Assembly: GCA_026770705.1 (NCBI GenBank)
Contig: JANJGN010000007.1
Location: forward strand, 109,988,001-110,052,000
Direction: 5' to 3'
Origin: Isurus oxyrinchus
Taxonomy: Eukaryota
DNA length: 64,000 nucleotides
Positions 60 to 29,500 of this stretch are shown one piece after another. The translations under genes and the position numbers were made by a program. Every line of letters starts with the position of its first letter. The first letter of the stretch is position 1. The notes below the pieces were generated by a model that was not told the origin of the DNA, did not search any database, and worked only from the letters and a program-made list of their open reading frames with translations.

Positions 60-400
60 CAGGGTACGGTAAGGAAATTATTTTAAACTTTTATAAAGCA
101 CCAGTTCAGCCTCAGCTGGAATGCTTTCTTCAAATCTGAAGGATGTCAGGGACTTGGAGAGGGTGCAGAAAAGATTTGCTGAAGGTTCGCCTGGTTTAAG
201 GGTCTTGGGTTATGTGGAGAGATTGGAGAAGCTACAGTTGTTCTCCTTAGAGTCGAGAATATTAAGAGGAGGCTTGATAGCGACTTTCAAAGTTATGAAC
301 AGTATTGATTAAAGAAATTAGGAGAAACTGTTCCCAGTGACACAAGAGTCCTTAACCAGAAGATAGAGATTTAAGGTGATTGGTAAAAGAAACCGAGGCA
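60..400 (+). mobile_element. Old CR1 fragment (also at about 43940-44280)
   Basis: LERVQKRF..YVERLEKLQLFSLE. Confidence 0.75.
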
Positions 401-1480
401 TCTAACATTTGGCTGGAAGTTAGTTGCGTGTAGCCCCGTCCTGTTGTTGCCATCGGTTCGTACAGCTTAAATGGACGGCGGTGAGGAGCAGAAATCCTGA
501 TTGATTTTTGCCTCCTGATTTAGATAAGCTAACTCGGCACACAGCGGATTTGGAAACAGGAACCTGCAACACGCTGAATGCAGTGAATAATCAGTCTTAC
601 TTTCATTGATATCTCTTTTCTCTTTGCAACCAGCTTGCTTTAGTTAGTCCAAATGCAGGTTTCACCCAACACACCGCGAAAATTCCTTCCGAAGAATAAT
701 TATATTCGACTGGAAATTTTACTTCGGTTTCTATCTCTATAGATACTGCTGGACCTGCTGATTTTTCCAGGACTTTCTGCCTTTATTTCAGATCGTCAGT
801 ATCCCCAGTATTTTGCTTTTATTATTCGCGAATATTCCTTATTGCATTTCAGGCCTGCTGGACGAATAACTGTAACATTGAAAGGTGTAGATGTAGAACC
901 AACATTTCATCTCTGGTATGGTGAAGGTAAAATTGTCCTCAACAGCTCTGGGATGAAAAAAGGACGATGAGCAGGATTATTAATCTAAATTGCTGTTGCA
1001 GTGAGCTGTAACTATTCCGATGAGTGGAGGCTGGTTGGGGTCTCGATCTAAATATATAAATAAGAACTAAGTATTGGCACATTCACATTGTCTATGCTCC
1101 TACATGAAGTCGGATGCCTTCGGTGAAGTGCTGGAGGACTGCCTGCGCCTGCGGCCTACATCTTTAGTTTCAGTATAGAGTGAAGTATCAAAGGTAGGTG
1201 TTGACAAAGGTGTTGATTGGAACGAAGTGCCCCGGGAGCGGCTGAGAAAACATTACCCTTCACGTGAAGGCTTTTCAATCAGCAGTTAAGGGGTGATCTT
1301 CAATTTCCTAGACTCCACCACGGTAGAATAAACAGACCCAATACGCTGCGTTAGTCATGTGATCTCCATATCGTGGTCATACGTTTCACATATTTACCTA
1401 TGAAATAAAGTTCTTACCCAAGCCACTGGTGATATCATTCTCACTGACAGCAATTTGGCAACTAACTTTTTATTTGCAAT

Positions 1481-1535
1481 ATGTCGATACAAGCTACAGT
1501 TCAGTACATGACTCTTCTGCGCATGGTTTGGCCAG
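1481..1535 (+). CDS. Copy A exon 1, probable leader peptide (MSIQATVQYMTLLRMVWP)
   Basis: ATG at 1481, 55 nt ending CCAG|GTACC (phase 1, matches the V exon); conserved in copy B at 45364-45418. Only moderately hydrophobic. Confidence 0.65.
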
Positions 1536-4500
1536 GTACCTTTGGTTTTTATATGCTACCGGTTTCAGAATAGCAAATCGTAATTAAATTATTCTACAAC
1601 TGTTACGCATTGTAAAATTGCATCCTGTTCCTCTCAAATTCGACTGTTGGCAATTCATAATGGATCTTATATTTTACATCTTTGCTTGTTTTTCTTTATC
1701 TATTGTATGCACTGTCTTCTTCATTTTTTTTGATAGCTGCTGGAGCAACTTCGAACAAACTGGAGCAGTTCCCTAAAGACTTGGACGTGACCAGTGGCGC
1801 GAATGTTTCCATATTCTGCAGATTTCCCATATTTCAAGGTTTTCCTGATGTTCGTTGGTGGAAACGCGACGAGGAAACCTTTCTGGAACCAGATAGCAGA
1901 AAGCGAGTTGATGTAAAAAAAGGAAGTAGTTCGTTTGACATCCTGAATGTGACTTTTACAGACTCCGGGGTGTATTATTGCAAAGTAAGGCATAGGCAAA
2001 AATTAATTGGGGACGGAACTGGCACCCAGCTCACTGTGCACGGTAGGTTTTCTTGTAAGTGGAAGGGTTACAGCTCTTGCGATACATGTCATTTGAGCTT
2101 TTTATCACTTAAGGAAAACCTGGTGATATCGAATTCCTTTTACACATCATTGGGTTTTCTTCCATTGACATCAGTGTACAACGGGCGTCTTAAATTTGAA
2201 ATTAAGCAATGGAATAATATGAACAAAAAACAGAAAATGTCGGAAATATTCAGAAGGTCAGGGAGCCTCTGTGGAGAGAAACAGTTAGCGTTTCATGTCG
2301 ATGATCATAATCGATCCGAAAAGTTAACTCCGTTTCTCTACACAGTTGTCGCCCATTCTGCTGAATATTGCCAGCATTTTCTGTTTGTATTTCAGAATTC
2401 CAGCATCTGCAGTGTGTTGCAATGGATAGGATGGTTCGTCCTATCCAAAATAACGGAGCCACAGTGCAACAATGGAAACGACTATAACACTTCCTAGGTC
2501 AAGTCATTAACACAATATTCAATATCATTTAATTCACCTCAACAGTGTCGTAATTATAAGCTCAGGTGATAACTCCCCGACTACAGCGACGAATATTTCA
2601 GTCACTTTTTCCGCCCACTGCTCGAAAGAGTCCATTTAACAATTTGGATACCGAATTATTCGAAAACTGAGATGTCTATGTTTTTGTTAGGTGTGGGTAT
2701 CAAGGGAACAGAATTAAGTCGGACAAATGGTGTTGAGGTAAAGATCAACCATAATCTAAATGAATGGCAGGGCAAGCTAGCGGTGTTGGATGGACACCCT
2801 GTTCCTATGTCCGCAGTTTATACTTTGTACTTGTGTCCACTAATAACGTGTTCGAAATACCAAACTACTTCCACAAAGTCATACTACAACCCCGTAAGAG
2901 GGGAGATGTTGATCTTGCTCTCAATGTTGGATTCCACCCCAAGTCCTAGGACTTGAAGGACAATTGAGGTGCCCAATGCCCTTATTTCAATTGGTAAACC
3001 AATTGCACTCCTTCTGATGCACTCACAACTGGTAGAGTGGAGGGAGGACAACACCAAACATTTCTATAAACGTCTGGGCTCCCGTATTTGTAATTCATAA
3101 TTTCCATGCTCACTCTCCATATGCAGGCGGAAGTTAGAGCACGAGACCAAGAGAACACTGGCTTCTTTCTCTCCAGAGGGGATTCTGTCACTTTTTGTAT
3201 TAAACCAAAAGCAGATCCATGGGGAAAGGATAGCGAAATTCTGAGGCTTTGCTGGGAGTAAAGGCTAACAACATTTTGAAAATTAACAATGCCATTAATT
3301 TAATAATTTGCTATTAGTACAATACAGTAAAAGAAAACTTGTAAAGAAGACTGACTTTAACAAACAACAAAAGATGCAACCTAATAAGGGACTTTACTTC
3401 CAGTTACCAGGTGATTACAGATAGAGCGGACAGATAGAGCGTTTCACGTCAAGAAATGGTAAATTTGGATTGTTATAAGCAGAATCTTCCCCAGAAAATG
3501 CGTTCAACGGACGGAGACAGAATGCAGTTGTAGAATGGCAAAACCCTGGTATTATATAAAACATGCACTCTGGGTTAGGATTTCCTACTCGGTTTCCGTC
3601 ATCGGTATGGATGCTGTGATCTATACAGCCATAAATAACTATCAAAATAAATTATTTCTTGGCGTCCTAAACACTCCAGCTCTCCGTCCCCCTTTGGTGA
3701 AAGATGCACGATTTGAAACCTCTACCACAGACCCTTGAAATGTTATATAATCAATGGTAACGCACGGATTCTAATCTATATCATTTTCTGGAGTCTATTT
3801 AGATACCGGAGATATTTTCATATCACACATCTTCTCAATATAAACCATTAACACAAAATATCTTCTGAAACATATGAAATATTCGAAAACGGCCATTTTT
3901 AAAATAAGCATACAACGTTTAGAACGACAACGATTTTTACAGAAAACGAGCGTCGGTCCCATGGATCGTGTAGACTGGTTTGCGCTCTCTCGTTGATAAA
4001 TTCGGACAGGAATCTCACTCGGGGTCTGTGCTGCAAACCCTAATCCCGCTCTGGTACCTGACATTTCCATTCCAGGCAGTGACACTTGTTACAAAAACAT
4101 AAAACTGCCGATGCTGGAAATCGAAAACAAAAACAGAATTACCTGGAAAAACTCAGCAGGTCTGGCAGCATCGGCGGAGAAGAAAAGAGTTGACGTTTCG
4201 AGTCCTCATGACCCTTCAGCAGAACTAGGTGAATCCAAGGAAAGGGGTGAAATATAAGCTGGTTTAAGGTGGAGGGGTGGGTTGGGTGGGGGGAGAGAAT
4301 TGGAGGGGGGTGGGTACCCCTCTCCACTTCTCTCCCCCCACCCAACACCCCCCCCCCCAAAACCCCACCTTAAACCAGCTTATATTTCACCCTTTCCTTG
4401 GATTCACCTAGTTCTGTTGAAGGGTCATGAGGACTCGAAACGTCAGCTCTTTTCTTCTCCGCCGATGCTGCCAGACCTGCTGAGTTTTTCCAAGTGACAC

Positions 4501-6827
4501 TTGTTTCTCGGTTGTTACACAGCCTGGGACATACTCCCTCTTTGTGGGTCGCTCGAAAAGACACCTGGCAAATTTGCTGTGCTCCTCATTACATTGTATA
4601 AAATAAATGCAAACACAAAGGTAAACACGTGACAGCAAGGACCACTATTCTCACAGTATGAGGTTAAGAACATATCGAGGATAGATAACCTAGAATGTGC
4701 TCCTTTAAATTCAAAAATATATTTCTTTCCTGTTAAAGTACCTCCAACACCACTGAAAATTGTTCCTGTTGAAGGGATTTCAACGACTTCTCTGAAACTC
4801 GCGTGTAAAACGGCTACCTTTTACCCGGAGGATTTAAGAGTTTCCTGGCAAAGAGATGGTGTGGAAATTCTGACCGGAATAAAAACTGTGAAAAGCGAGA
4901 CCGTGGATGGGCTCTACGAGGTTTCCAGTTCTTTGGAAGAAGCACAGCCTGTCCAGAATAGAGTCGTTTATACCTGTCTGGTATATCACGAGTCTCTTCA
5001 GGTGCCCGTCAATGTCAGCTACATCATAAATCAAGGTAAGATTGGAAACATTTATAGCAGCGAGTGGGGATGTGCTCCAACCTGTGTTTACTCATTAGAC
5101 ATGTAGCTGGGCTGCTGTTCAAACTTGAGTATACAGGGTGAATGTGGACTGTATTTACTCTCAATGTCACATTAATGGGAATGAAATAAAATAATCAAAT
5201 GGTTTGCAGCTGGAGGAGGGGGAGAATATCTCCCTGATGAGATCTGATGGAGGTTGATGTGTGAACTGCTCTAAAAACTGAAAGCTCATTCCTCGTCACA
5301 TTTTTGCCAAATGAAACGAATTTACTCATAAAATGGATCGGTTTTAGCAGTGAATTTTATCTCCCGTATATTTAAATTGAATATATGAGAATATCATTGT
5401 GCTCATCAGTTTTCTCTGGACTGTGCTTTTAGCTGTTTCACCCATAGACTCAAAAATTCCTGCTCTAAATATTTCCGCCTCTCCAACTCTCCTTTTACAC
5501 GCTCCCTGAACTCTACCTCCACCTGTCCGAATATCACTTTATGCGTCTTGTTATTGTTTGATAACGCTGCTGTGAAGTGCGTTTGGGCGTTTTGCTCCGT
5601 TACATGCAAGGTATTCTTGTTACCTACTGAAAGTTGCAGGAGGTATCCTTTGGTAAGACTGTTTATCAGTATTGAAGAGTGGAAGATTTTGCCTCTCTTT
5701 GTTTCCAATGCGCATCTGTCTGGTGTAGCACAGAAAGGTAAAAAGTGTACGTGCCTTACTCTTAACAAACAACCCTCACGTCCATGAGAAGCTTCCTGCG
5801 TCTTTATTGATTTATTCCCTCCTTAAATTGCGTTACTGGCTTTCAGTTTATACCGTTTGGAACACGTTTTAATCCTTCTGCAGCTATGCCCAATTTATGA
5901 AAGCAACCGGTCCCCACGGACATTAAACGGTTACCCAAGAGACAGCTTTACACCTCGCCCTCCTATGTCTGACACATAACTCTGTATATAAATCTCGCTG
6001 TGATCTGCGGGTTCTTGTTTCAATCTTTTCTTGATCCTGTAGGTACTGATGTCAATCTTCTGCTGACCTTTCGATGGGCAGGGGGCATATTGGCGATTTT
6101 ACTATTGATAATTATTTTGACGATACTCATTTTAAAAGCATCAACTGGTAAGAGCATTTTTTTACCTCGCCACAGTCTTTATTTTCTAAAGCCCAGTTAT
6201 ACCGTCAAAAGACATAAAGGACGGGTGAATAGTGTTTCATTATAAAGGAATAACGAGCATGTTAATGCATCTTTAGATAATGAAGTTGATACCACGAGAG
6301 CGTTATGGGATTGAGAGTTCAACATGACAATATAAACCGATTTTGGAATGCGAATATTTCATCTTCTCAATGGAACTGTTCATTCGGTTCATACACTTTC
6401 AATTTGTTACCCCCGGGATCCTTGACGTTCTGCATTTTTAAAAATATCAGTGTAGATCCAGACCTCGACGTGCAAACACTTTGAAGTGAATTTTGACTTT
6501 CTGCGAAGTGTAAAACGGGTGATATATGGAACTGGCAATCTGTTTTACATCTCTGCCTGATTAAATTTCCATTGCAATGTTACGATGTAAAATGGCTCGC
6601 CGACTCTTTGTCACATGCTTTACGCTATCCCACACAAGGCAGTGAGCTCCATTGGGTGTAGCGTATTTACGGAGTACTTCAATTTTCAAGGCTCCTTCCT
6701 TTACACAGTGAAAGCGTTTAGCTTGGAAGTCAGGTTATTGGTTTTGCTTGCACGCTCATTAAGTTATTCAATTTGGAATTCTTCTCTTCCTTTAGGCGTT
6801 AACAGAAATTCTGTGGAAGCTGATTAG
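1481..6827 (+). CDS. IgSF receptor copy A (leader-VJ-C1-TM-short tail), 264 aa spliced; SIRP/NKp30/VJC1-like, candidate activating or tail-less receptor
   Basis: Exons 1481-1535, 1737-2042, 4739-5035, 6043-6147 and 6796-6827 all have GT-AG boundaries with phase-1 introns and sum to 795 nt with no internal stop. Domain motifs are given in the exon entries. Confidence 0.85.
1737..2042 (+). CDS. Copy A V-type Ig exon with J-like G strand
   Basis: TTTTTGATAG acceptor; EQFP..VTSGANVSIFC, VRWWK, DSGVYYC, GDGTGTQLTV; donor G|GTAGG. Confidence 0.93.
2225..2420. mobile_element. Older, decayed palindromic pLTR-like element
   Basis: Inverted arms (AACAGAAAATG..AATATTCAG / CTGAATATT..CATTTTCTGTT); also present in copy B near 47505-47700. 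Confidence 0.6.
4188..4226 (-). ncRNA. Minimal hammerhead-like motif (antisense arm)
   Basis: Reverse complement is AGTT-CTGCTGA-AGGGTCATGAGGACTC-GAAACGTC-AACT. Confidence 0.6.
4410..4448 (+). ncRNA. Minimal type I hammerhead ribozyme-like motif
   Basis: AGTT-CTGTTGA-A-GGGTC(ATGAG)GACTC-GAA-ACGT-C-AGCT: stem I, core, stem II and palindromic ACGU helix III, as in PLE minimal hammerheads; the core has U in place of A6. Confidence 0.65.
4739..5035 (+). CDS. Copy A C1-type Ig exon
   Basis: VPPTP..LKLACKTATFYPEDLRVSWQRDG..DGLYEVSSSL..YTCLVYHESL (C1-set FYP, W and YxCxVxH motifs); AAG|TA acceptor, G|GTAAG donor; 297 nt. Confidence 0.93.
6043..6147 (+). CDS. Copy A transmembrane exon
   Basis: GTDVNLLLTFRWAGGILAILLLIIILTILILKAST; TAG|GT acceptor, G|GTAAG donor; Arg codon CGA at 6072-6074. 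Confidence 0.88.
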
Positions 6828-6844
6828 AGTGAAGAGTCAATGTG
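6796..6844 (+). CDS. Copy A first cytoplasmic exon, with in-frame TAG at 6825-6827
   Basis: CTTCCTTTAG acceptor; GVNRNSVEAD*; TG|GTGAG donor; 49 nt, the same length as the copy B exon 52451-52499, which has CAG at the aligned codon. Confidence 0.72.
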
Positions 6845-10470: not shown

Positions 10471-10610
10471 ATTAAAGAGGCAGGGATAACAAGCTGATTT
10501 ACGCCACTCTGCAGCTCGCTGATCCAAGAAAACATCAAAACATTAACAGTAAGACGAACACGTAGTGTACGCAGAAGTGAACATGACAAGGAAAGAGAGA
10601 AGCTGAGAAT
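10471..10610 (+). pseudogene. Decayed terminal ITIM exon of copy A (probably 3' UTR now)
   Basis: TTTCACAG acceptor; LIYATL and VVYAEV are recognisable but lie in different frames, with indels and TAA/TAG stops relative to the open copy B exon 59410-59548. Confidence 0.8.
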
Positions 10611-11587: not shown

Positions 11588-14500
11588 ACAGCCCCATTCA
11601 CACCTTGCTACTTCACTTTCCTTATACAGCTTTTGCCTGCCACCAATCAACATTAAGGCAACGCACATTATGTACAATTGCATGCAGTATTTTCAGTACA
11701 GTTTGATCCTATTAGGAATTATACATGCCTTCGGCAATCCTAGTGACAGCACTTCTAAAATGTATCCAGCATCTGCCAGGGGTAATGTTCTAGCATTCCA
11801 TTCTGCCAGTATGATGTGCAACACTACAACTAAGTACAGCATCAAAACCGCCCAGATCGTTAAAATCTCTAATGTTCACAAAGTGGAGCAAGATACTTCA
11901 CTCTACATTCTGGGAAGTGGATGGTACAGACAAGGCTACATTAGACACGGAGAAGGTCACAGTGGGCCTTCTCCTTGAATTATGCAACAAAGTCCTTAAC
12001 TTATCACACGTCTCTGGCTAAGCAGAAATTCCGATCATTTCCTGCACAAAATAGATATCGAATGAACCATGGGCCCACCACCAACTGGAGACAGATATCC
12101 TCTAGACCTGCACGTGGTGCATTACAATTTTCTCATCTCAGGCTAATGTTAATAGCTGCAGTCCAGTTCAAATTGATTTTTATTCCTTTGCAGCTTTAAA
12201 CATTTCCTCTTCGTTTTTTCGAAAACCTTTTGATACAAGTTCATGAAGATCTGTATCAGCCTTATGACTGCCTGCAATCAGATACGTACTGCAATACCCA
12301 GTGATTCTGAACATTGTAATTTTCTGAAAATTTAAATTACTTCACACACAACTTACGTTCAGCAGACACCGTTGCAAATTGCATAGGACTATTAAGCAGC
12401 AGCAGCAATCCGATCATTTACAAGCCTTAGTCACATGGTATGGGCAGAAAATAATTGTGTGTGTGTGTGTGTAAAACAGGCAAGAGTTAAAATTCCAACC
12501 AACACTGTAAAGCCTCGAGTCCCACATCTGATCATAAATGAGAAGAAATTTGTGCGAGAATGGAGTTAGACCAAAAAATTACTTCTCCAAAGACGAAAGG
12601 TAAACACTTCACATTTCTACCACAGTAACCAAAGCAGCAGAATCCATTCAATGAATTGCCAATCCAGCTAGTTTTCGAGTGCGACATCCAATTACAAAAT
12701 AGAAACAAAATGAACAGGATGAAATATAAAAATCGCATGCGTTTCAGCCAAATAAAAGCTCAAAAAATAGTGATTTTATTCATTTAATAAAGTAGATGAT
12801 GCAAACAATTACGCACGTGCAGAAAGAAACATTTCATTTTTTAGAAAAGCTGCAGTTAAGTTCCTTGTTTCTTATTGTCGAGTTAAACAGAGCACCAGCC
12901 AAGTCAGGACAAGTGCTGCAAAATGCCACAGGCTAGGGTAGAAGAACTAATTAAGTCCGTGGCTGATGGAAGCCACGCTTGATGATGTTCAGGGAAACTG
13001 GACTTACATGGCCATCATGATCTTGTGCCTGGGATATTCATAAACTTCATTCATGAATAAAATTAATCCGAGAACTTAAAAAGTTACCAGAATTTTAGAT
13101 ACCTTGAAAAATGTAAACATTAACTGCAATGAAAGAAATGATTTTCTTTTTTAAGTATGAACAATGCATTTAAATACAAGGGCATTGAGTCATGAAACAC
13201 TTTTAGGAAATCTGCGTCCGGTTTCAGGATTGAAGTTGCCCAATTGCATACAGTGAAGTAGCCTTGTGATGTATCGAGTATAATATATCAAAATATCATG
13301 TTGGGTTAATTGATTAAAATATTTTGTTTTTACACATAACCAAACTACAAGCTAGTTATTAACCTAAACTTTTCTACAGCTGGCCTTCTAGTTACAATCT
13401 GGTCATCATTACTCATATTGCTACGCTTGGCCTTTCAAATTAATTTTCTAGATTTCCCCTCACCTGAAACATCTTTCTTCACTGTTTAGTTTAAAGCCCT
13501 ACCTAAACTGCGACACCAATGGACTAGAAGCCCAGGTTAATGGCAGGGGTCCACAAATCATAGAATCTTCACAGTGCAGAAAGAGACCATTCGGCACATT
13601 GAGTCTGCACTGGCCTCTGAAATAGCTTTCTCCCTAGTCCCACTCCCCTGCCTTATCCCTGTAACCTTGCACAATCTTTCTTTTCAGATAGCAATCCAGT
13701 TCCCTTTTGAATACCTCAATCGAACCTGCCTCCATCACATTCTCAGGATGTTCCTTCCAGACTCCAACCACCCTCTGGGTGAAAAAAAACCCCTCATATC
13801 ACCTTTACTCCATTTGCCAATTGTATTGAATCTGTAACCTCTAGTTCTTGATGCGCTCTTGATTGGGAATGGTTTCTCACTCTTTACCCGGTCTATACAC
13901 CTCAGCACCTTGAATGCCTCTATCAAGCCTCCTCTCAGTCTTCTTTTCTCCAAGAAAAGCAGTCCCAAGCTCTCCAACCTATCCTCATAGCAACCAATCT
14001 TTATCCCTGGAATCATTGTTGTGAATCTCCTCTGTACTTTCTCCAATGCCTTCACATCCATTCTCAAGTTTGGCTCCCAGAACTGGATTCAGTACTCCAG
14101 ATGAGGCCTAACTATGTCCTTTTGAACTTCAAGACTATCCTCATGACAGTTGACGTTTTCAATCCTCGTACCATTTGCTAATTTTGAAATCATGGCCTGA
14201 ATATCACAGTCTAGGTCATTAATAAAAGACGACAGTCTAGGTCAAGAAGAGCCAAGGGTCCCAACATTGACCCCTGAGGAATCCACTACAAATATTCCTG
14301 CAATCAAAAAAGCAACCATTTATCATTACTCTGTTTCCTGTCACCCAGCCAATTTCCTATCCAAGTGCTCACTTTCCCTTTTATTCCATGAGCCAGAATT
14401 TTGGTCATAGGCCTGTTGTGTTTTTAACAAATGTCTTTTTAAAATCCATATACACCATATTAACAGCTTTCCCTTATCAACCTATTCTGTTTCTTCATTA

Positions 14501-15184
14501 AAAAAAGCTCCAGCAATTTAGTTAAATATAATTTTCCCTTAATGACCTATGCTGGCTTTCCCTCATTATCCTACACTTACTGAAGGGACTGTTGATTTTG
14601 GCCCAAACTACAGTTTCCTCAAATTTCCTTACCACTGAAGTCAAACTGAGTGGTCTGTAGTTGTCAGCTTTATCCTTACATCCCTTTTTGAACAAGGGTG
14701 TAATGTTTGCTATTCTCCAGTCCTCTGGCACCACCCCTGTGTCTAAGGAAGGCTGGAAGATTATCATTAGTGCCTCTGCAATTTCCACTCTCGCTTCCCT
14801 CTGTACCCTTGAATGCATCTCATCTGGTCAAAGGTAGCCACTCTAATAACTCCTCCTCCTCAATTGAAAATTCTTCTAGCGTACCAGTTATCTCCTCTCT
14901 CACCTCGGCCTGGGCATCTTCTTCCTTTGTAAAGACAGGTGAAAAGTATTCATTTAATACCCTGCTATTTCTCCTAACTCCACATACAAGTCCCATTTTT
15001 ATTCCTAATCACCCCCATTATGAATTTTACCACCCTTTTATTACTTATATGCTTATGGAAGACTTTAGGATTCCGTTTTCAATTGGCTGCCTGTCTCTAT
15101 TCATGCTCTTTCCTTGCTTTTCTTATTAGTTTTTTTCACTTCCCCTGGCCCTTCTATATTCAGCCTGATTCTCCATTATATTTT

Positions 15185-17495
15185 CCACCTGTCGTGCTTG
15201 CGGGCAGACTGAAGGTGTTCCTCAAAGCAGTCACCCAGTCTTTGTACGGTCTCTCCAATATAGAGGGGACCACATTGGAAGCAGCGAATGCTTTTGACCA
15301 AATTGAAAGAGGTGCAAGTGAAGCACTGCTTCATCTGAAAGAAGTGCTTGTTCTCACTTTTCACCCCACCAGCCTACAAATTCAAAGGGTCATCCTCTGC
15401 CACCTCCGCCAACTCCAGCATGATGCCACTGCAAAACAAATCTTCCATTCACAACCCCCTGTCGGTATTCCATAGGGACCGGTCACTCCAGGATACCCTG
15501 GCCCAATCTTCCATCACCCACAATACCTCATCCCCCTCCCACAGCACCCTGCTATGCAATCACAGAAGGTGCAACACCTGCCCCTTTACTTCCTCCCTCC
15601 TCTCTGCCCAAGGGCTGAAACACTCCTTTCAGGTGAAGCAGCGCTTGACTTGTGCCTCCTTCAATTTGATCTACAGCATTCACTGCTCCCAATGCAGTCT
15701 CCCCTATATTGGTGAGGCCAAATTCTGACTGGGTGACAGCTCTGCAGAATGCCTTCGATCTGCACACAAGCATGACCCAGACCTTCCTGTCGCTTGCCAT
15801 TTCATCTCATGCCCACATGCCTGTCCTTGGCCTGCTGCAATATTCCAGTGAAGCCATTGCAACATAGATGACTATGTGGGGGGGTAGGATTAGTAAGTTT
15901 GCGGATGACACAAATATTGTCTGGGTGGTTAACAATGAGGTTGAGTGTCTTGGGCTACAGGAAGATATAGACGGGATGGTCAAATGGACAGATAACTGGC
16001 AGATGGAATTTAACCTGGAAAAGTGTGAGGTGATACATTTTGGAAGGAGTAATTTGACAAGGCAGTATTCAATGAACGGCATGGCACTAGGAAGTTCTGA
16101 GGAACAACGGGACCTTGGCATGTGTTCACCACCTCACTAACATGCAGAGCGGCATGTTAGTGAAGTGGTGAAAAAGGCATATGGGACACTTGCCTTTATC
16201 AATCGAGGCATAGATTACAAAAGTAGGGAGGTCATTTGGAGTTGTATAGAACCTTAGTGAGGCCACAACTGGAATACTGTGTGCAGTTCTGGTCGCCACA
16301 TCGTAGGAAAGATGTGATTGTACTGGAGGGGGTGCAGAGGAGATTCACCAGGATGTTGCCTGGAATGAAACATTTAAGTTATGAAGAGAGGTTGGATCGA
16401 CTTGGGTTGTTTTCGTTGGAGCAGAGATGACTGAAGGGCGTCCTGATCGAGGTGTACAAGGTAATGTGGCCCATGGACAGGGTGGATAAGGAGCAGATGT
16501 TCCCCTCAATTGAATGGTCAGTCACAAGGGGGCATAAGTTCAAAGTCAGGGGCAGGAGGTTTAGGGGGGATGTGTGGAAAAACATTTGTACCCAGAGGGT
16601 GGTGATGGTCTGGAATACACTGCCCTGGGAGGGTGGTGGAGGTGGGTTGCCTCACATCCTTTAAAAAGTACCTGGATCAGAGCTTGACATGTCATAACAT
16701 TCAAGGCTATTGGCCAAATGCTGGTAAATGGGGTTAGGTAGGTAGGTCAGTTGTTTTTCACGTGTCGGTGCAGACTCGATGGGCCAAAGGGCCTCTTCTG
16801 CCCTGTGATTCTGTGTTTCTGAAGAAACAGCATCTCATCTGCCAATTAGGATTTTACAGCCTTCCAGCCTTAACATTGAGTTCAACAAGTTCAGACCATG
16901 AACTCTCTCTGCTGCATCCTCACGCCCTTTTTTATCGCCTTTTTTACTATTCATTTTCATTTTCTAATTTCTTTTTCTATCAATTTTTAATTTTTGTTTT
17001 TATCCACTTACTTTAATTTTATTTATTTTCATCTTTATTCATTGTTTTATCCCCACCATTTATCCTATTTTCAATCGATTTTCCTAAATGTCCCCTCCCC
17101 TCACTCCATCCTCACAAGGGCCATCTGAAACTTGTTCATGTTGTTCTTTCCAGACTGCTTCCTCTTGCCCAGCTGTTATCACATCCTGATTTCTGACCTT
17201 ATTGCCACCATCAGCACCTCCTTTAGCCAGCACCACTACCATTAACAGCCCTTTGTGCTTTTGTCCAGGACATCTCTGGCAATCTCTCCTTTGCCTCCAC
17301 CTATCACTGGCTTCTATATACCTTCAGCTGATCCACTGTCCTTAAACAGTATGAATGTCATCACATTTTTTTCATCTCTTTAAATCAGAAGAAGAGTCAT
17401 ATGGACTCGAAATGTTAACTCTGTTTTTTTTCCCCTCTCCACAGATGCTGTTAGAACTGCTGAGTTTTTCCAGCATTTTCTGTTTTTGTTTTAGA
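15185..17495 (+). mobile_element. Penelope-like element with an inverted 5' piece, nested in the CR1 and itself interrupted by a CR1
   Basis: GIY-YIG on - at 15185-15350 and on + at 15350-15860, resuming about 16820; pLTR-like end at 17380-17495. Confidence 0.8.
15865..16815 (+). mobile_element. CR1 3' fragment
   Basis: [21 protein letters not shown], (GATTCTGT)-type tail. Confidence 0.88.
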
Positions 17496-20400
17496 ATACC
17501 TGCTCTCTTGTTGGATCAGAAACATGCTGCTGCAGAAAATCATCCTGAACACATTCCAGTAAGCCTTGCCCCTCCTGTCCCTTTGCACTATCCCTATCTC
17601 AGGCTATATTTGGATAATTGAAGTACCCTATTATTATTACTCAGTAGTTTTTACACTTCTCTGTAATTTGTTTGAAAATTTGTTTATCCACATCCCTTCC
17701 ACTGGTTAGTAGCCTGTGTGCTACACCAATCAATATTATTGCACCTTTTCATTCCTTACTTTTTGCCAGAGAGATTCCATCCTTCACCCCCCTGTAATAT
17801 CTTCTCTCTCCAATACTGTAATGCCATCTTCAATCAATACTGCCAGTCCCTCGCCCCACCCTCATTTGTCTTTTCCTGTCTCTCCTAAAGGCCTTGTACT
17901 TGGAAATATTTAATAACCACTCCTGTCCTTCTTGGAGCCAGGTTTCTGTTATTGCAATAATATCATAATTCCATTTGTCAACCTGCACCTGTAGTTCACC
18001 AATATTAATAACTACACTCCATGCATTCACACACATGCACATTAACCCTGATTTAGGCTTTACTTTCCCCCTTACTCTGAGCCCATCTAATGACTTATTA
18101 TTGCCGGCGTTAATTCTATCAGGCCCTCCAAGTACTCCATTTACATTGATACTACTCTCTGATATAACCTCCTTATCAGTTCATACTTCTCTGTTTCCCA
18201 CTGCCAGTTCCTCTCCTCTCCATTTTGAACTTGCCCTCAGGTTCCCATCCCCTTGCCAATCTAGTTTAACCCGCACCTTCTCCTGCACTGCACCCACGCC
18301 CTCAACAGCAGTAGCAAACCTCCCCAAGAGGACATTAGTCCCAGTCCGGATCAGGTAACCCATATTTCTTTGATAGGTCACACCTGCCCCAGAACCAGTT
18401 CCAATGCCTCAGAAATCTAAAGCCACCCCTCCTATTCCATTTCTCTACCCATGGGTTGACGTGCTCAATCTTCTTATTCTTATGCACGTTATCAAGTGGC
18501 TGGGGAGTAAACCTGACATTACTGCTCTTGAGCTGCTGTGTTTAATTTCCTTCCTAACTCACTAACCTCTGCTTCCACGACCTCATCCCTTTTCCTACCT
18601 ATGCCCTTGGATCCAATGTGGACCACAAGCTCTGGCTGTTCACTCTCCTCCAAAACAATGTCCTGCAGCCACTCTCTGACATCTTTGACCCTGGCACCAG
18701 TGAGGCAAAATACCATCCTCGAGTTAGCCGCAGAAACACCCGTCTGCTCCCTATATAAGGAACCCCCTAACGCTATAGCTCATCCACTCCTCCTCCTCCC
18801 TTCCTCATCATCTGAACCACCTGTGATGCCATGAACTTAGCTCTTGTGCCAGCCCTCTGAAGAATGATCTTGTTCACCAGTATCCAAAATGGAAAAGTGA
18901 TCAGGGAGTGAGGTCTTCTCAGCAGATTCCTGCACTACATGGCGGTTTCTCTTAGATATTCTGGTGGTTACCCATTCCCTCTCTGCTTGTCTGTACATTA
19001 GCTGTGGTGTGACTGCATCTCTAAACATCCTGCTCATGTAATCCTCAGCCTTGCACCTCCAGGTGCACCACAGTGAATCCAGTCACTGCTCGAGTTCCAC
19101 AACCTGGAGCTCAAGTTTTTGTTTTTGGTGACACCCTCTGCAGATGTAGTCATCGAGGGCACTTTTCACCTGCATGACTTCCCACATCCTGTAGAATGCA
19201 CACTCCACATCACCGAACTGCATTGACATACCTTAGGCTTTATATAAAATGTTTATTATGGTATGGTATAATGTAATATCTCACCTGTCACTCACCAACC
19301 AATTGTCACATCCAGAAAGGCCAACACTTATAAACCAATCAACTTATAGGCCTCCTGTGATATCACTTTTAGTTTTTATCTGTAAATTCCCTGCTCTCTC
19401 TCTCCGCTTCTTTAAGCTCTCAGACCTCTCCAGTTAATTACCAGTTACCATAAGACCATAAGACACAGGAGCAGAAATTAGGCCATTCGGCCCATCGAGT
19501 CTGCTCCTCCATTCAATCATGGCATTACTGATTAACCTACGTCTTCTGCACCAAAATGGAAAACAAACACTGGAGGCTGATAAGAGTAGAAGAGCACCTC
19601 TTCCCCCCACTTCACCAAACTCCCAACACAGGAAGCTCTACCCCTTGCACTAAGTCTTACTTAAATCATTGAAGAGGAATGGGCCCTGTGCACTGAATTC
19701 CCACTTTGAATCAAATTCCCAAGTACTCACTCTGTTTCTGTCTCATTCAGGCAAAGTCTCTCTTACTGTAATATGGGATTAAATGCATTTAAATTCCAGC
19801 ACAGCAGCTTTTCAATTCAATTAATAATGTCTGGAATATGAAACCACCATTAATTGTTGTGAAAAAAAAAGCAAATGGTTCTCCCATGTCCTTTAGGGAA
19901 AGAATCTGCCATCCTTGCCCGGTCTAGCCTACATGTGATTCCTGACCAGCAGCAGTGTGGTTGACCCTTAACTGTCCTCTGAAATGGCCAAAAAGCCACT
20001 TAGTTAAGCATAATTAAGCGTGAGCAAGGAAAAAAAGAACAGGAAATTACTCATTGGTCTACAGTTGTATTTGAAATCAAAATATCTCTCTTCAAGTAAT
20101 AAGCTCCTTCAGGCTGAAATGCAAGACAAACCCTTTCACATGAATCAAAACAAATGGCCTGATAAAGGGAATTTTAATGGATGGGTTTCTTTAAACAACA
20201 TTAATGCATGCCCCAGGTTCTGCTGTGATTCATGTATGAAAACAATCAGGAGGTGGAAATGTCAAAATGAGCTGTACAAAGTATCGGCTACCAGAATGCA
20301 CAGACTTAGTAGCTCACTTACTTGTATTTCACTATTTCAATCATAGCTTGTTCAAAACATAACTAAGCTTGCAGTTAGCAACGGGATAAGTTCTCGTGAA

Positions 20401-20789
20401 TTAGCTGAGAGTCTGGAAGCCAAAGCTTTCATTCCAAGGGTGCCATTGTATCCGTGAAGACTGAAGCTGTGCATACTGAAAAAAGAAGGCTCGGCTGATT
20501 CACCTGAGGGAATGGTTAAATTACAAGATGCTGTACAGGAAGCTTTTTAAAAGGGCATTCTCACCCTAGATCATAAATAATGTTCCAGCCATGTTGCCAT
20601 TTAGCAAGCCTCCTACAACCAACGTTGCCCTGTAAAAACTTCTACCTTCGGAGTTTAGTGCTTTCCATTTCAACAAAGATCCAACCACAAGCAACAATAA
20701 CTCAAGGCGCACTTTAAAATTGCAGCATGATGTGGATACTGGAAATCGGAAAGTACAACAAGAAATGTTCTACAGTTTGTCTAGTGTTT

Positions 20790-23190
20790 TCTATTTGTTC
20801 AAGGGACATGGCAAGGACAGCATTAATTATCCATCCCTAGTTACCCATGAGAAGATCATGGTGAGCACCTTCTTGAACCCTTGCATTCCCTGTTCTGCAG
20901 GCACATCCACAGGGTTATTGCAGGGGGTGATGGTGGGGGTGAGTTCCAGGAATTTGACCCTGGCACAGTCAAGGAATGGCAATATATTCCCAGGTCAGGA
21001 TGGTGTCAGTTCTGGGCACCACACTTTAGGAAGGATGTGAAGGCATTAGAGAGAGTGCAGAAAAGATTCACAATAAAGGGTCCAGGGCTGTGAACTTTCA
21101 GTTCCGTGGAAAGACCAAAGAAGCTGGTGCTGTTCTCCTTGGAGAAGAGACTTAATAGGAGATTTGACAAGAGTGTTCAAAATAATGAGGGGTCTGGACA
21201 GAGTATGTAGGGAGACTGTATTGCCTTTGGCAGAAGGATCGTGAATCAGAGTGAGCGATTTAAGGTGATTGGCAAAACAAGTGACAATGACATAAGGAAA
21301 AGCTATTACGCAGTGAGTGGCTAGGATCTGGAATGCACTGCCTGAGAGTGCTGGAAAGGCAGATTCAATTGTGGCATTGAAAAGGGAATTGATAATTACC
21401 AAATAGAAAAGATTTGCAGGGCCATGGAGACAAGGCTGTGGGATGGTGGTTGGGTGAGGAGGGGGGTCGGGGGTGGGGGGTGGTGGGGGAGACGAGTTAC
21501 ATTGCTCTTGCATAGAGCTGGCAAGGTCTTGATGGACTGAATGGCCTCTTTCTTTGCTTTAACCATTCTATGATGCTCGGTAGTTGGGGTGTTGTGTTCG
21601 GAATGAATGATGCTATCCAAGGAGCCTTAGTGAGTTGCTGCAGTGCATATGTTGTTGCCACTGTGGGTCAATGGTGGAGGAAATGAAGGTTTAAGGAGAT
21701 GGATGGGGTGCCAGACAAGCAGGCTGCATTGTCCTGGATAGTGTCCAGTTTCTTGAGTGTGCTGGAGCCATATTCATCCAGGCAAGTGAACAATGTGGAC
21801 GTGGGAGGGGACTGTGGTGGGAAAGAAGATTGAGAAGGCTAAAAGCTGGGCATAAAACAATTAATAAGAATGGAAATTAATTTAAAATTAGTAATAATGA
21901 ATATAAGGGGGGGAAATATATAAATACATAAATTAAACTAAAAATTAAAAAATAAAAATGAATATAGAGAAAAGGGGGGGATGAAAAAGGGATGGGGATG
22001 GAGGAAATAGTTCATGGTCTGAAGTTGTTGAAATCAATGTTAAGTCCCGAAGACTGTAAAGTGCCTTACTGGAAGATAAGGTCCTGTTCTACCAGTTTGT
22101 GTTGAGCATCACAGCAACTTTGCTGCAGCCCAGGGATGGACCTTGAGAGCAGGATGGTGTGTTGAAATGGCAAGCGACAAGAAGCATAACTTATCCCCAA
22201 GCATGACCCTGAGATTTTATTGCCTTTGGAAGAAGGATCTTGAGCTAGCGCCAGCAATTTAAGGTGATTGGCAAAACAAGCAACAGTGACATGAGGAAAA
22301 CTGGTTTACGCAGCGACTGACTAGAATCTGGAATGCACTGCCTGAGAGTGAGGAGGAGGCAGATTCAATTGTGGCATTCAAGAGAATTGGATAATTATCT
22401 AAATAGAAAAGATTTGCTGGGCCATGGAGAAAGGGTGGGTGGGGAGACGAGTTAAATTGTTCTTGCAGAGAACTGGCACAGTCTTGATGGACCAAATTAC
22501 CTCTTTCTATGCTTGAACCATTCTATGATTCCAGGTATTTGAAGTGTCGGACTGAGAATGGGTGGTGCTATCCAAGAAGCCTTGACCAGTTCCTGCTGTG
22601 CATCATGCAGATGTTGTTGCCGCTGTGGGTCAATGGTGGAGGAAGTGAAGGTTTCAGATGATGGATGGGATGTCAATCAAGTAGGCTGCTTTGTCCTTGA
22701 TATTGTCCAGTTTCTTCAGTATGCTGGGGCCACATTAATTCAGGCAAGTGAAGAATATTCCACCACACACTTGGTTTGTGCCTTGTAGACAATGGACAGG
22801 TTTCGGGGTGTTAGGTGGTGAGTTACTCTGTACAGAATTCCCAGACTCTGACAAGGTTTTGCAAACACAGTTTTCATATGGCCACTCTAATTGGTATTCT
22901 TATCAACAACGAGACCAAGATGTTTACTGGGGTAGGGGTGGAGGTGGGGTGGAGAGAGTTTCTTCGCCAGTAATACCTTTGAACGTCAAGGATGGTGAGT
23001 GGATTCTCCCTTGTTGGAAGTGGTCATTGCCTGGCACGAATTGTGGAACGAATGTCACTTGCCTCTTATCGACCAAAGTCTGAAGGTTTCCAGGTCTTCC
23101 TGCATATGGACACGGATTGCTTCGGTATCTGAAGACTTGTGAATGGTGCAGAACACGGTGCAATCATCAGCAAAGCTTCCCCACTTTACA
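20790..23190 (-). mobile_element. Mosaic of non-LTR retrotransposon fragments (minus-strand RT with + strand CR1 tails and a PLE piece)
   Basis: FADDCTVF at about 23150 on -; CR1 tails at 21007-21570 and 22215-22530; PLE-like segment at about 21800-22190. Confidence 0.65.
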
Positions 23191-23353
23191 CGTGGTGTCA
23201 CTAATTTCTGACATATTCCTCGTCTGAGCTTCGTGAACCCACTCAATCTGAACCATCGACTGGTCATTTGCTTACTTGCATTGATTCAAATGCTTTTTTT
23301 CTATGTATACTGTCCCTGGGGATTGAACACAAGGGTGCAGATGTTTATTCTAG

Positions 23354-26300
23354 TATCTACGTTAGCTTTCTGATGGTGATTGGGGATTCCACAATCAGCC
23401 AAATACCCTGCCTTCAAGTTTCCGCTCAAACGAACAAACATCACCTGATAGGGCATCTTCCCATTCTTTCAAGAGGAGTCAGGTGTAGGGGTTCACTGGT
23501 GGAGACACGATAACCAGGAGAGCTTAGATGACGAGGAAGCGAAGAGACAATATAATCTTCCATTAAAGGGGGAGACGCCCTCTGTCTCTTGAATTCTTGA
23601 ATGTGAGATTCAAAGAATCTGTCCGCTATTACTACTATGTGTACTGCCGGGAAGGATAGTCAGGGATAGAACCGGCTCAGAGATTCTTGCGCCGGTTGAG
23701 TCGCAGGTTCGGGATGTTGCAGGAGTCAATCATGCAACAGGTACTTGGCGAAATTCCATCGAGGTAGCGAAGAGTGTGGGAATGGGACACCTGCCCAGGT
23801 TTTTGTATTTAGTGCCAGCAGCAAACCAGCCTAGAGCTAAGATTACCGATTTACGGGGAAGCTTATTTGCAAGTGTTTTTCTTTAATGTAGCCAGTTATA
23901 TATTTGTTAAAGTTTACAATTTCGTTACTGTGGAAGCATGATCCACATTCTTTTTAAAAGGTAGATGAATAAAAACGTCAATAAGGCGAACTAGATTAAT
24001 TTTTCGGGGCCAACTTAGCACACTGAGCAAATGCATTCCTACACTGCAAAGTAGTATGACTCTATAACCAAATAAACTAGGATTCGATAACCAACGAGTC
24101 CAGATTTACGAAAATTGACTAAAGAACAACAGGCGAAGGGAAGATAAATTGTTTTGCAAAGTAAGTTGCTATGATCAGGAATTTCCTGCCTGGAAGCAGC
24201 AATAGTAATTTTCAGGGGGAAATTGGATAGAAACTACAAAATAAATTCGGCGCTTTGCAGAAAGAGCTGTAGAGTGAGGTTAATTGCATTGTTCTTTCAA
24301 AGATCCAATACAGACACGATGGGCCAAATTCTCCATGACTCAGTACATGTTTCACTTTTCTTTCTCTTTTTAAGTGTCCATGTAATTTCTGGTTCATGTT
24401 CAATAATGCTTGAAGACGCAGAAGTTAAAAACGCTCCAATAAAACACCACGTTAAAGGACCTGTCCTAAAATTATGTTTTAAATTACAGGCTACAGAAAT
24501 AAAATAATAATTAATATTTCAAAATCAAAATCATTTTCTTTTCCTCCCAATTTTTTTCATTCTTCTGATTGAATCTAAATTCTAAAGCCATTTCACCAAC
24601 TCCACTGCGCAAATCAGTTGTTTTACCCTGAAGATCTCAGTGTGACTCCAGTTTAGGAACCATGCGACAATTAGAACAGGGACCAACACTCCGAAGCAAC
24701 GAACCACGGTGGGAATGTACGAGCCTTCCAGCACTTTAAGGTATACGGCATCAACCAGCAGTGGAGCTGCATACAGCTGCCAAGAGTGTCATCTTTCTCT
24801 TCAGACTCCAACATTGTCAATTAAAAATGTGAATGTAAGGTCATTTTTTTTTCAAAAACTCTTGCTCGTTTGTCGCCTCTCTTAATACAAGGGCGTTTGT
24901 GAATGCATGTTAGCATTTGGCGCTGTTGCATTCCTTTGTCACATTATGGATTTAATGCTTCAATCGCATTTTGTTATTTGTTGGCATTTATTTGAATATT
25001 TTTAAAACATACCTGTATTTGTATTAAATGCCGATTAAACGATTTGTTCTGATCCCATGTATCCCTTTGGTTTTTTTGTTGGTGTTGGTTTTATTGATAT
25101 TAACGCCTGTTGGCCTTACATCTCTGCAACTCTTTGCAGTCGCTGCTAACGTCGTTGTCGTCTCTTTGACGTTCGGCATTTAGTGGGTATGTTGGTAATA
25201 ACGGCGCTGCGTTGGAGATTATTTGAAGCTGAGGTGCTGCCAAAGGTGAGACACGCCTTTATTACCAGAACGCAGCGTCGCTTTGAAGATCAAACTTTTG
25301 CAATAAATCTGCAAAGTCGCGCTAACCGATAGGAGATGGCAATTAAGATCTTTGGTGATGGACATTTGGATAACACTTCACACGTTGAAAGCAATGAGAT
25401 ATTCTCCCGGGAAATTGCTGATGCACAGTTCCGACTATTGTTGCTCCGGACAAGCATTATCTTGCCAGAGACAACGACTTCCTCTGGAGTAGCAACGTTG
25501 GGAAGATATTTGGGGAGTTACCATGTTGTGGGGAAATGGTGGAAGCGATTATAAAAAGCCATATAAGATTGCACCAGAAAGGGCAGCCAGACGAATTTTT
25601 TCTAAGTTATCGCACGAGAGTAAAATGCCAACCGCCTCGATAACGGGCTAATGATTTGGTTTTTTACATCCTACACGGTCACCAGAATTGCCAGAGTCCT
25701 TTGCAGTCAACATTTGAAGTATGGTCAATGTTTTGATTGGGAAGCGTCACTGCAAACTTGCGCACAGCAAATCCACAAATTAGCAACGTGATTATGACCA
25801 GAAAACCCGTTTTCTTTTTGAGTGATGGAACGATTCGGTCATTGAAATTATGAAAGAGTTTGATATGGTTGATCCAAAGAAAATGTGTTCACTCGTGATG
25901 GAATCCAGAACTAGAGGGCAGAAATGGATAGCCATAAATGAATCGAATAGGTAATTCGTGAGAAGTTTCTATAGCGAGTAAGTGGTAAGAATGTGGAGCA
26001 TGCGAGAGAAACGAGTAACTGAGGAGAATAGACTACACACGTTTAAAGGGGAAGATTGATATACATATGTGGCAGGAAGATATATGCAGATTGGGATAGA
26101 AGAAGAGGAGGGAGGAGCATAAATGCCAGCAGATATCTGCTGGACCGAATAGCCTGTTTTGTGCTGTAGGCTCTATGCATTTGTATGCAATGCAGAACAG
26201 AACATGTTAGAAACACTTGATGAGAAAGATAAGTTAACGGTTCAGTCATAGCCCTTCATCAGAACTGGAAAGATGAAGAGGAAATCACAAATGACACAGA

Positions 26301-27005
26301 TGTTAATATCATGTCTTAAAAGTAGAAAGACGTACTGAAATGTTTCCAAAGAACTAACCAAAAAGAAAAATACATCCAGTCAAATAAATCGTATTAAAAG
26401 GGAGGAAGCAAAAAGTTGATCGAAGAGGTGGTTTTAACGAACAATATTAATGGGAGAGAAAGAATGCACAAGCGATGTCGTTGAAAGAGAGAATGGTGTC
26501 TAGACAATGGAGGTAAAATGATAATATTATATTACACTCCAGCAGTAGAAGAATGCAGATATGGGGGAGCGATTGGCTGGACGAGTTGTTGAGATAGGGA
26601 AGGGCACGGCCAAAAGGTATGAGAATTTCAGGGGTTGGGAAGTAATTGTAAGTCGGCCAGGATAGGAATGATGGGTGAGCAGGGCTAGGTGAAGGATGGG
26701 ATACGGCACCAAAGTTTTGAATGAACTAAAGTTTATGGAAATTGAAAGTCAGCGGGGTGGAAACAGACACCTAGGATTGCTAAAATGTAATTGGAGATTC
26801 CTTTGACTATGTGTGGTGCTGTAAATGGGTCGGCAGTCTGTTTTACATCTCTCCAGATTTATGTTTCCATTAACTTCTATTGATCAATATTGGGATTTAA
26901 CTTGCCAAGGATAACTGTTTCTGTTACAGAGGATTGAGATGGGATGCAGACGGATAATGTCACAGAGGGAGAAGTAGACAATCTTTGCAATGAAGAAGAT
27001 GTGCG
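23354..27005 (+). pseudogene. IgSF receptor copy C, an older diverged pseudogene (V, C1, TM, cytoplasmic exon 1)
   Basis: V remnant about 23354-23694 (ISQIP, VGVHWWR, FLNVRFKESVRYYY, DRTGSEIL); C1 remnant 24588-24834 (SPTPL, FYPEDLSV, GMYEPSSTL, YSCQECHLSLQTP, |GTAAG); TM remnant 25140-25245; cytoplasmic exon 26930-27005 ending NEEDV..|GT like NEEAV of copy B; frameshifts or stops in each. Confidence 0.8.
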
Positions 27006-28349: not shown

Positions 28350-29500
28350 CAAGGACAACAGCAACCTGATGCTGGAGGAAAGTTATAGGTCATGGAATAA
28401 AGGGGGCAGTAGCAACGTGGATACAAGATTGGCTGAGGGATAGGAAACAGAGAGTAATGGTTAATGGGTATTTTTCGGGCTGGAAGTAGGTTCGTAGTGG
28501 AGTTCCCCAGTGGTCGGTATTGGGACCCTTGCTTTTCCTAATATATATAAATTATCCAGATCTTGGTGTGCAGGGGGCAATTTCAAAGTTTGCAGACGAC
28601 ACAAAACTTGGGAGAATTGTAAACTGTGAGGAGGACAGAGTAAGAACTTCAAAAGGACATTGATACATTGGTGGAATGGGGAGATAGCTGACAGATGAAG
28701 TTCAATGTGAAGAAGTGTGAGGTGATACACTTTGGTACAAAGAACAAGGAGAGACAGCATAAAATAAAGGATACTACTCTAAAGGGTGTGCCGGAGCAGC
28801 GATACCTGGGTGTATATGTACATAGGTCATGGCATGACAGGTAGGGTGACCTGTTTTCTGAAAATATACAGTATTCTAGGCTTCATTAATAGGGACATAG
28901 AGTACAGGAACAAGGAGGTTAGGAGGAACTTATAGAAGACACTGGTTGGACCTCAGCTGGAGTATTGTGTACAGTTCTGGGCATTACACTATAGGAAGGA
29001 TGTGAACGCATTTGAGCGAGTGAAGAAGAGGTTTACGAGAATGGTTCCAGGGATGAGACACTTCAGTTATGAGGAAAGATTGCAGTATTTGGGACTGTTT
29101 ACCTTGGAGAGGAGAAGGCTAAGTGGAGACTTGATAGAAGTTTTCAAAATCATCCCGGTTCTGCGCAGAATAGTTTGAGAGAAATTGTTCCCACTTGTAA
29201 ACAGACTGAGAACCGAAGGGCACAGTTTTAAAGTGTTTTGTAAAATAAGCAAATAAAAGGTAAGAAAATACTTTTCCACACATAGGGCGAATTGGGTCTG
29301 GAATGCACTGCCTGGAAGTGTGGTGGAGGCAGGTTCAACTGAGGCATTCAAGAGGTCATTGGATGGTTACCTAAATAGAAACAATGTGCAGGGTTACGGG
29401 AAAAAGGTAGGAGATTGGCACTAAGTTAAAATGCTCAGAGAGCAGGTGCAGACATGATAGGCTGAATGGTCTCCTTCCACACCATAATAATTCTGTGATT
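28350..29500 (+). mobile_element. CR1 RT/3' fragment
   Basis: [29 protein letters not shown]1-like tail. Confidence 0.88.

Follow-up and report, generated by a model that had tools for sequence, protein, structure and literature searches.

Homogenisation of ligand domains ("merohomogenization") is known from several families of mammalian paired receptors, NKG2/KLRC, KLRI, NKR-P1, Ly49 and PIR, and conversion and recombination are both regarded as likely contributors in the sections of PMC3210942 devoted to it. In these receptors, as described in such sections, paralog affinity switches sharply between the ectodomain exons and the signalling exons, and partners with an arginine in the transmembrane (TM) segment and a short tail face partners whose tail carries immunoreceptor tyrosine-based inhibitory motifs (ITIM). 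The first trait recurs in two neighbouring immunoglobulin (Ig) genes, here called A and B, and the second in the gene array to which they belong. Both genes lie in a window of 64,000 nucleotides (nt), C7:109988001-110052000 (C7 being the contig), of the ~5-Gb genome of the shark Isurus oxyrinchus; positions below are those of this window unless C7 is given. Unlike in the mammalian receptors, the likeness of A and B stems mostly from a block duplication that is 7% old and extends over 21 kb of intergenic DNA, the youngest A-B tract covers the C1 exon and not the variable (V) exon, and B, the partner of inhibitory type, is now a pseudogene. We consider A to be rather probably a recombinant, with promoter, leader and V exon from the B lineage and TM segment and tail from the lineage of two further paralogs, P3 and P6; the join likely arose from unequal crossing-over which tandemly duplicated ~45-50 kb. 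A, predicted to be an activating receptor, would then owe its V domain to a receptor predicted to inhibit.

To judge from the text passages that treat them, SIGLEC11/SIGLEC16 and SIGLEC5/SIGLEC14 resemble A and B as neighbouring inhibitory/activating pairs with high identity on the 5' side, no motif at the boundary and one partner that can be non-functional. The converted region of SIGLEC11/16 measures ~2 kb at 97-99% identity, without a boundary motif, in the part of PMC5701461 that deals with it. In the same kind of passage this region recurs in each primate, whereas A and B are 94-96% identical and their likeness is older than a species split. Siglecs have sialic-acid-binding V-C2 domains, A and B have VJ-C1 domains. 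Activating KIR and Ly49, according to passages of PMC3210942, resemble A in that a charged TM residue and a truncated tail appeared on an inhibitory-type backbone, followed by a new ectodomain through recombination. A differs from KIR in that its arginine lies near the N-terminal end of the TM segment, and it belongs to an unrelated Ig family in cartilaginous fish. KIR use a TM lysine and DAP12; a TM arginine is the mark of FcR-gamma/CD3-zeta coupling, as in NKp30, NKp46 and LILRA.

The VJ-C1 gene type is discussed as a relative of antigen-receptor precursors. Non-rearranging VJ and VJ-C1 genes have been described in sharks (UrIg, UrIg2, NCR3) along with PRARP, in passages of PMC10751288 and PMC12227049 in which no ITIM-tailed family of this kind occurs. 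As far as such passages go, the array of A and B has in common with the SIRP family, PRARP, UrIg and NCR3/NKp30 a V domain of VJ type encoded in a single exon and, after it, a C1-set domain, and with SIRP and the non-rearranging VJ-C1 genes the presence of ITIM-tailed and short-tailed members. Our literature search, with supplements and most subscription papers outside its scope, found no paper on a paired VJ-C1 family of sharks; Ohta et al. 2019, on VJ-C1 genes, may name the family. Paired receptors of mammals already exemplify the mechanism, and it is the setting, a shark VJ-C1 family, that is new: the mammalian pattern of ectodomain swaps between inhibitory-type and activating-type receptors would extend to a non-rearranging family of cartilaginous fish.

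Identity step and probable mosaic ancestry of gene A

In the examined stretch of C7, 109.755-110.05 Mb, eight paralogs lie on the same strand, P1-P6 followed by A and B. Translation, Pfam and comparison with homologues gave the same layout for each gene of the array: a leader exon, a V exon of VJ type, a C1-set exon, a TM exon and exons for the cytoplasmic tail. The original prediction, made from the letters of the window alone, had placed a sharp identity step between A and B just before the TM exon. A change-point fit bore this out: divergence rises from 309/5767 (5.36%) to 875/4674 (18.72%) at 5772 (support 5759-5829), a point that corresponds to 50635 in B, none of 500 permutations gave a change as strong, and no further significant change point was present to the right (73/500 permutations). 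The hand counts behind the prediction were reproduced exactly, with 8 substitutions in 297 aligned nt and a 1-nt insertion in B for the C1 exon, 3/60 for the intron stretch 5401-5460 and 20/97 for the TM exon (21/103 and a 2-nt deletion in B when the whole exon is counted). The intron after ~5790, which had been called hard to align, is indeed harder to align, but alignable all the same. A check of the step region found no tandem repeat there. To speak of near-identical ligand-binding exons goes too far, since the V exons differ at 19/306 positions (6.2%), with 10 amino-acid changes and a stop in B, and are no more alike than the intergenic flank (7.1%).

Separate trees for the 5' and 3' parts including the paralogs, which had been proposed as a check, were discordant: A stands with B at the 5' side and with P3/P6 at the 3' side. 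These trees were based on A-anchored alignments in which four repeat-rich stretches were masked; P3 is absent from the promoter tree. Over 1737-4090, A and B formed a clade with 100% support outside the P3-P6 clade (100%), whereas over 5791-7990 and over 10008-13263 A joined P3/P6 at 100% and B fell outside. Approximately unbiased (AU) tests rejected a clade of A, P3 and P6 for 2421-4090 and a clade of A and B for 5773-13263 (p ~1e-5). Change point and discordant trees together support the predicted recombination boundary in the C1-TM intron. Divergence between P3 and P6 remains at 10-14% all along the gene while that between A and P6 drops from ~16% to 9-11%, and it is therefore A that changed its ancestry. 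The 3' half of the P3/P6/A lineage is nearer to B than to P1, P2, P4 and P5.

The step also marks the end of a much larger unit. From 21,060 bases before the window through 5772, the sequence is collinear with 21797-50635, a block of ~27 kb that is mostly intergenic and in whose upstream intergenic part A and B sides differ at 1412/19777 positions (7.14%). The downstream flank of A (13264-21796) differs from that of P6 at 627/8311 (7.54%; p = 0.24 against the 7.14%). Direct blocks with ends in paralogous genes and flanks of equal age, as a tandem duplication should leave, were thus both found. The adjoining blocks form one repeat unit of ~45-50 kb, with its start inside a P6-type gene and its end inside a B-type gene, as unequal crossing-over between paralogs, an established mechanism, would produce. 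Because the step is the end of a mostly intergenic block, the likeness of A and B is mostly duplication ancestry and not conversion limited to the ectodomain. Of the conversion tract that had been predicted, covering promoter, leader, V and C1 and ending near 5790, the boundary stood and the limitation did not: in place of a 5' boundary near the promoter, the 7.1% divergence continues 21 kb upstream. As a caution, an identity step ahead of a TM exon can mark where a large duplication stops, with no need for ectodomain-limited conversion.

Some conversion probably did occur inside the block. The 5' gene region is modestly more alike than the upstream flank (313/5786, 5.4%, against 7.1%; p 3e-6), with a drop to 5.1-5.4%. 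Divergence in a tract that spans the end of the V-C1 intron, the C1 exon and the C1-TM intron, and whose right end is the step (3618-5772), is lower than in any of the 11 upstream windows of that length, taken without overlap (5.1-9.6%). Its left edge is poorly fixed (support 144-3740). B differs from P6 by 16-17% in the promoter and the first part of the V-C1 intron, by 13% in the last part of that intron, by 70/718 (9.7%) in the C1-TM intron and by 22% after the step (p 7e-6 and 5e-13). With the lowest value in the C1-TM intron and higher ones on both sides, the middle of B is of P6 type. On these distances the C1 region of B was likely converted by A at a later time, in a tract that stops at the step; this is less secure than the duplication, and it is what remains of the earlier reading.

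Proposed history and alternative explanations

Divergence gives a relative order of events, with the species split at ~1.5%, the conversion at ~4%, the duplication at ~7%, the split of tail types at ~19% and the separation of the P1/P2 lineage at ~28%. The P3/P6/A lineage would have arisen from a B-like inhibitory gene, and would signal via an adaptor with an immunoreceptor tyrosine-based activation motif (ITAM), of the FcR-gamma/CD3-zeta kind. A, P3 and P6 all have a tail cut off by a stop at 10 residues, a splice donor that is dead and a decayed last exon with its ITIMs, and the TM Gly-to-Arg change is present in A and P3; P6 has additionally lost its TM exon. Next, as the flank matches at equal divergence suggest, a gene of P6 type and one of B type would have undergone a single unequal crossover near 4700. 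More tentatively, a later A-to-B conversion may have copied the C1 region and ended at ~5772, fixing the position of today's step. B then decayed and A kept its open frame, as both are seen in the assembly.

Several observations weigh against this history. Age is not uniform over the whole duplicated unit, as A-P6 divergence is 10.8% over 4493-12453 and 7.4% beyond, and A-B divergence falls to 3.7% over 3618-5772. Because of the former contrast one crossover is insufficient, and one has to assume another exchange or a donor copy that has been lost. Quartets over 5791-12400 place A no nearer to P6 than to P3. About 10 kb between P6 and A are missing between A and B, which needs a deletion; we read it as a later one, and the P3-P4 interval appears to hold this sequence too. 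The tract of 3.7% was chosen post hoc (6/500 permutations) against an overdispersed upstream background (5.1-9.8% per 1.4 kb). The tree of 5036-5772 lacks a clade of A, B and P6 (AU p 0.07; maximum likelihood pairs P3 with P6). Ten residues separate the V domains of A and B; of the coding changes 5 are synonymous and 11 nonsynonymous, the stop of B counted among the latter. The Asp and Pro in the TM segment of B have no listed change in a second species, so that B may already have been in decay before the species split. Finally, an arginine lies within the hydrophobic core of the A leader.

A single unequal crossover located exactly at the step would also make A a hybrid, without any later conversion, provided that the C1 region of B was already P6-like and that this homogenised stretch took the crossover. 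It needs the fewest events, the 61-nt run of identity ends directly before the step, and A-B divergence over -439..3617 (6.1%) lies inside the range of the upstream windows. It predicts ~7% divergence up to the step, however, where 3618-5772 shows 63/1716 (3.7%) and the C1-TM intron alone 34/730 (4.7%; p = 0.008 against upstream, with overdispersion ignored), and we regard it as possible but rather unlikely. Alternatively B may be the hybrid, its 5' end having been replaced by a ~27-kb block of the A lineage through duplication and deletion or through a very long conversion. The distance of B to P3/P6 does jump at the step while that of A does not, and the match of A to P6 is imperfect inside the 3' half. 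Promoter and V-C1 intron of A nevertheless differ from P3/P6 by ~16% and fall outside their clade, with its 3' half at 9-11% and inside, and the equal age of the two adjoining flanks would become a coincidence; this course is unlikely. The original prediction, in which old paralogs were kept alike by conversion limited to promoter, leader, V and C1 under selection for a shared ligand, is slightly less credible again. A step just ahead of the TM exon, opposite types of TM and tail, and a 5' gene region more alike than its flank (p 3e-6) all agree with it. As a sole cause it is contradicted by the likeness that runs unbroken for 21 kb upstream, and a V exon no more alike than the flank, a best left change point that is weak and broad (support -227..3699), a broken B and the ~2 kb at 97-99% in the SIGLEC11/16 passages of PMC5701461 argue against it as well.

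A chimeric assembly at the step can almost be dismissed. Tandem arrays are prone to misassembly; both halves of A and of B, however, are distinct and single-copy in the assembly, and the duplicated blocks, 7% apart and with private insertions, differ too much for alleles. Read evidence came from 4 of 24 sequencing runs, X1 from the own species and X5, X7 and X8 from three studies of a second species. Contigs over 50600-51380 from X1, X7 and X8 cross the step in B with at least 35 letters on its left, X1 being possibly the assembly's own sample and so not independent. Among the 32 pieces listed, none spans 5772 in A (they end at 5734-5737 and start at 5793), which carries no weight either way. 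A-type and B-type 3' regions are both present in the second species, in 3/3 runs at ~98.5% identity, and an X5 contig over 6079-7000 has 12 differences, none of them at the stop of A. Orthologue divergence of ~1.5%, taken from the 3' halves as the 5' contigs are short, is below the 4-6% between A and B at the 5' side, and comparing the two gives no sign of wholesale conversion after the species split.

Gene features and predicted signalling

The exons of both genes and the boundaries discussed above are collected in Table 1.

Table 1. Positions of exons, duplicated segments and breakpoints in the window
Feature	Position	Strand	Basis or remark
A leader exon	1481..1535	+	matches leader of shark homologue P0001
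A V exon of unsplit VJ type with open frame; contains a GxGT motif	1737..2042	+	Pfam V-set/I-set; translation
Likely younger A-B conversion tract	3618..5772 (B 48913-50635)	.	63/1716 = 3.7%
A-P6 distance drop 15.5% to 10.8%, likely older crossover point	4553..4742	.	best 4694; 0/500 permutations
A C1 exon, open frame	4739..5035	+	Pfam C1-set E 2e-11
Identity step	5759..5829	.	best 5772; 61-nt A=B identical run ends 5765
A TM exon, Arg codon CGA at 6072-6074	6043..6147	+	paralog alignment
A cytoplasmic exon 1, with TAG stop at 6825-6827 and AT in place of the donor GT	6796..6839	+	paralog alignment
A last exon, decayed; ITIM-like LIYATL and VVYAEV out of frame	10471..10610	+	translation
A 3' untranslated region and downstream flank	12453..21796	.	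676/9120 = 7.4% from same flank of P6
Duplicated block, B side (intergenic and B 5' half)	21797..50635	.	counterpart: 21 kb before window to 5772
B leader exon, 2/55 nt different from A	45364..45418	+	alignment
Repeat-derived insertion in B leader-V intron, absent from A	45597..46738	.	alignment; repeat class not tool-assigned
B V exon, broken: TGA 46897-46899, ~235-nt insertion (46939-47172)	46769..47320	+	alignment, translation
B C1 exon, +1 frameshift near 49658	49604..49901	+	alignment
B TM exon: Gly at the Arg site of A, Asp and Pro in helix, 2-nt deletion near 50886	50883..50985	+	alignment
B cytoplasmic exon 1, lacking a stop and retaining the GT donor	52451..52494	+	alignment
B middle cytoplasmic exon (VAYASL, TVYSQ)	56002..56112	+	also in P2, P4, P5
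B last exon (LTYATL, AVYAEV), out of frame after phase-0 intron	59410..59550	+	2 nt shorter at start than in P2/P4/P5

The open frame of A comprises 264 codons, with canonical splice sites. An ATG at ~1660 was considered as the start of its leader and rejected, as homologue P0001 sets the leader elsewhere. Among paralogs with an aligned leader, the arginine in its hydrophobic core is common only to B, and it may weaken the signal peptide. As a Gly-to-Arg change of the leader core it is shared by A (1481-1535) and B (45364-45418) and absent in P4, P5 and P6. From P2, which looks intact and is of inhibitory type, A differs at 34 V residues, from B at 10 and the stop of B; in this assembly A is without an intact close partner. 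Short interspersed repeats occupy 4091-4495 in A and 46939-47172 in B; they are paired, either head-to-head or inverted, and flanked by what look like target-site duplications. They were inserted after the duplication, and the copy in B splits its V exon.

The site of the CGA codon, near the start of the TM helix, reads GGA (Gly) in B, P1, P2, P4 and P5 and encodes Arg also in P3. At the level of motifs, P2, P4, P5 and B combine Gly at this site with retained ITIM-like motifs, A and P3 an Arg in the TM segment with the stop, from which opposite signalling of A-type and B-type genes is predicted. The paired layout that had been expected, with a TM arginine and a 10-residue tail in A and a non-Arg TM segment and Tyr motifs in B, was recovered at the sequence level. 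A charged TM segment with a short tail facing an ITIM tail, and ectodomains more alike with discordant trees, are features of paired receptors found here; two intact partners are not, as B is broken, with an open TM frame in the second species.

B is a pseudogene in this assembly, with V, C1, TM and last exon broken, and at present the two genes therefore do not form a functional pair. The 1-nt insertion in its C1 exon (49658) does not occur in the only X1 contig listed for this position; it could be an allele or an assembly error, or the contig could derive from a paralog. The 2-nt deletion in its TM exon is present in run X1 and absent in X5, X7 and X8, leaving the exon in frame in the second species, and at least this frameshift arose after the split from the related species. 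Reading the last exon of B in frame via a phase-2 donor was rejected, because P2, P4 and P5 show phase-0 introns and B lost 2 nt. In the comparison of array paralogs, the middle cytoplasmic exon with its Tyr motifs was not found in A, P1, P3 and P6.

Both tail types recur among shark and ray homologues. Two other genes of this genome, Q2 and Q4, have a different, older Arg-TM exon, which occurs also in proteins of Scyliorhinus and Heptranchias; since it differs from the one in A and P3, the family has two separate Arg-TM types. The exons of Q2 and Q4 lie at C7:109360544-109360633 (-) and 109075175-109075291 (-). Q2 was rejected as a recent inverted conversion partner of P1/P2, given ~19% substitutions across the leader-V region. 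One may picture a paired-receptor arms race of the sharks' own in an undescribed VJ-C1 family. In it the activating TM-Arg type would have arisen twice, once as the old exon shared across sharks and once by the new Gly-to-Arg change on an inhibitory backbone, and ectodomains would have been swapped repeatedly at the C1-TM intron (A/B, P4/P5), with A as an activating counter-receptor whose V domain was captured from a pathogen-exploited inhibitory receptor that was later lost. We regard this wider picture as speculative and rather doubtful.

Gene array and family

Five of the eight array genes are clearly broken (P3, P4, P5, P6 and B), P1 has a truncated tail, and P2 and A look intact. P4 and P5 (C7:109868000-109922000) are mosaics as well, with a 5' half of P3-B type, a 3' half of P1/P2 type and a switch just after the C1 exon. 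They differ from A by 13-18% at the 5' side and ~28% at the 3' side, from P2 by 29-30% and then 14-17%, with the switch near the equivalent of 5050-5100 in A. By these distances the switch appears to be an older, independent exchange in the same C1-TM intron. P1 and P2 (C7:109730000-109825000) sit in a tandem duplication of ~50 kb with ~91% identity; in P1 the middle tail exon is missing and 4 nt are deleted ahead of the ITIM-like motif, which leaves it with a non-charged, motif-free tail.

A search with the V exon of A gave 52 matches among 150 scored candidates, every one on C7. Many of them contain stops, and they lie at 96.4-97.6 Mb, 108.6-110.04 Mb and 114.8 Mb, that is, in two large clusters on one chromosome. 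These V-exon clusters are a birth-and-death family, whose names are automatic only: database homologues are called SIRP-alpha-like, B7H6-like or tapasin-like. All protein homologues, 24/24 matches in one search and 4/4 in another, came from sharks, rays or a chimaera, with no tetrapod sequences among them, and a PDB search with the V domain returned only generic Ig domains (17 sequences).

Features of SIRP type in the array are the VJ-type V domain with a C1-set domain and the ITIM-tailed and charged-TM members; the array genes have one C1 domain only. SIRP have two C1 domains, and NSFL1C is a neighbour of the SIRP cluster. Matches to the SEP domain, the one synteny marker used, were on contigs C5 and C12 only. 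Of 33 matches to class I of the major histocompatibility complex (MHC), 31 were on C21, 2 on C16 and none on C7. The array thus lies off the contigs with MHC class I matches and has a C1 exon, where NCR3/NKp30 would be expected to show MHC linkage and a single V domain.

Inside the duplicated intergenic block, at 23437-23745 (+), lies a V-like fragment, decayed and derived from a more distant member of the family (weak tblastn match, E 0.002), and its duplicate is found ~19,400 bases before the window.

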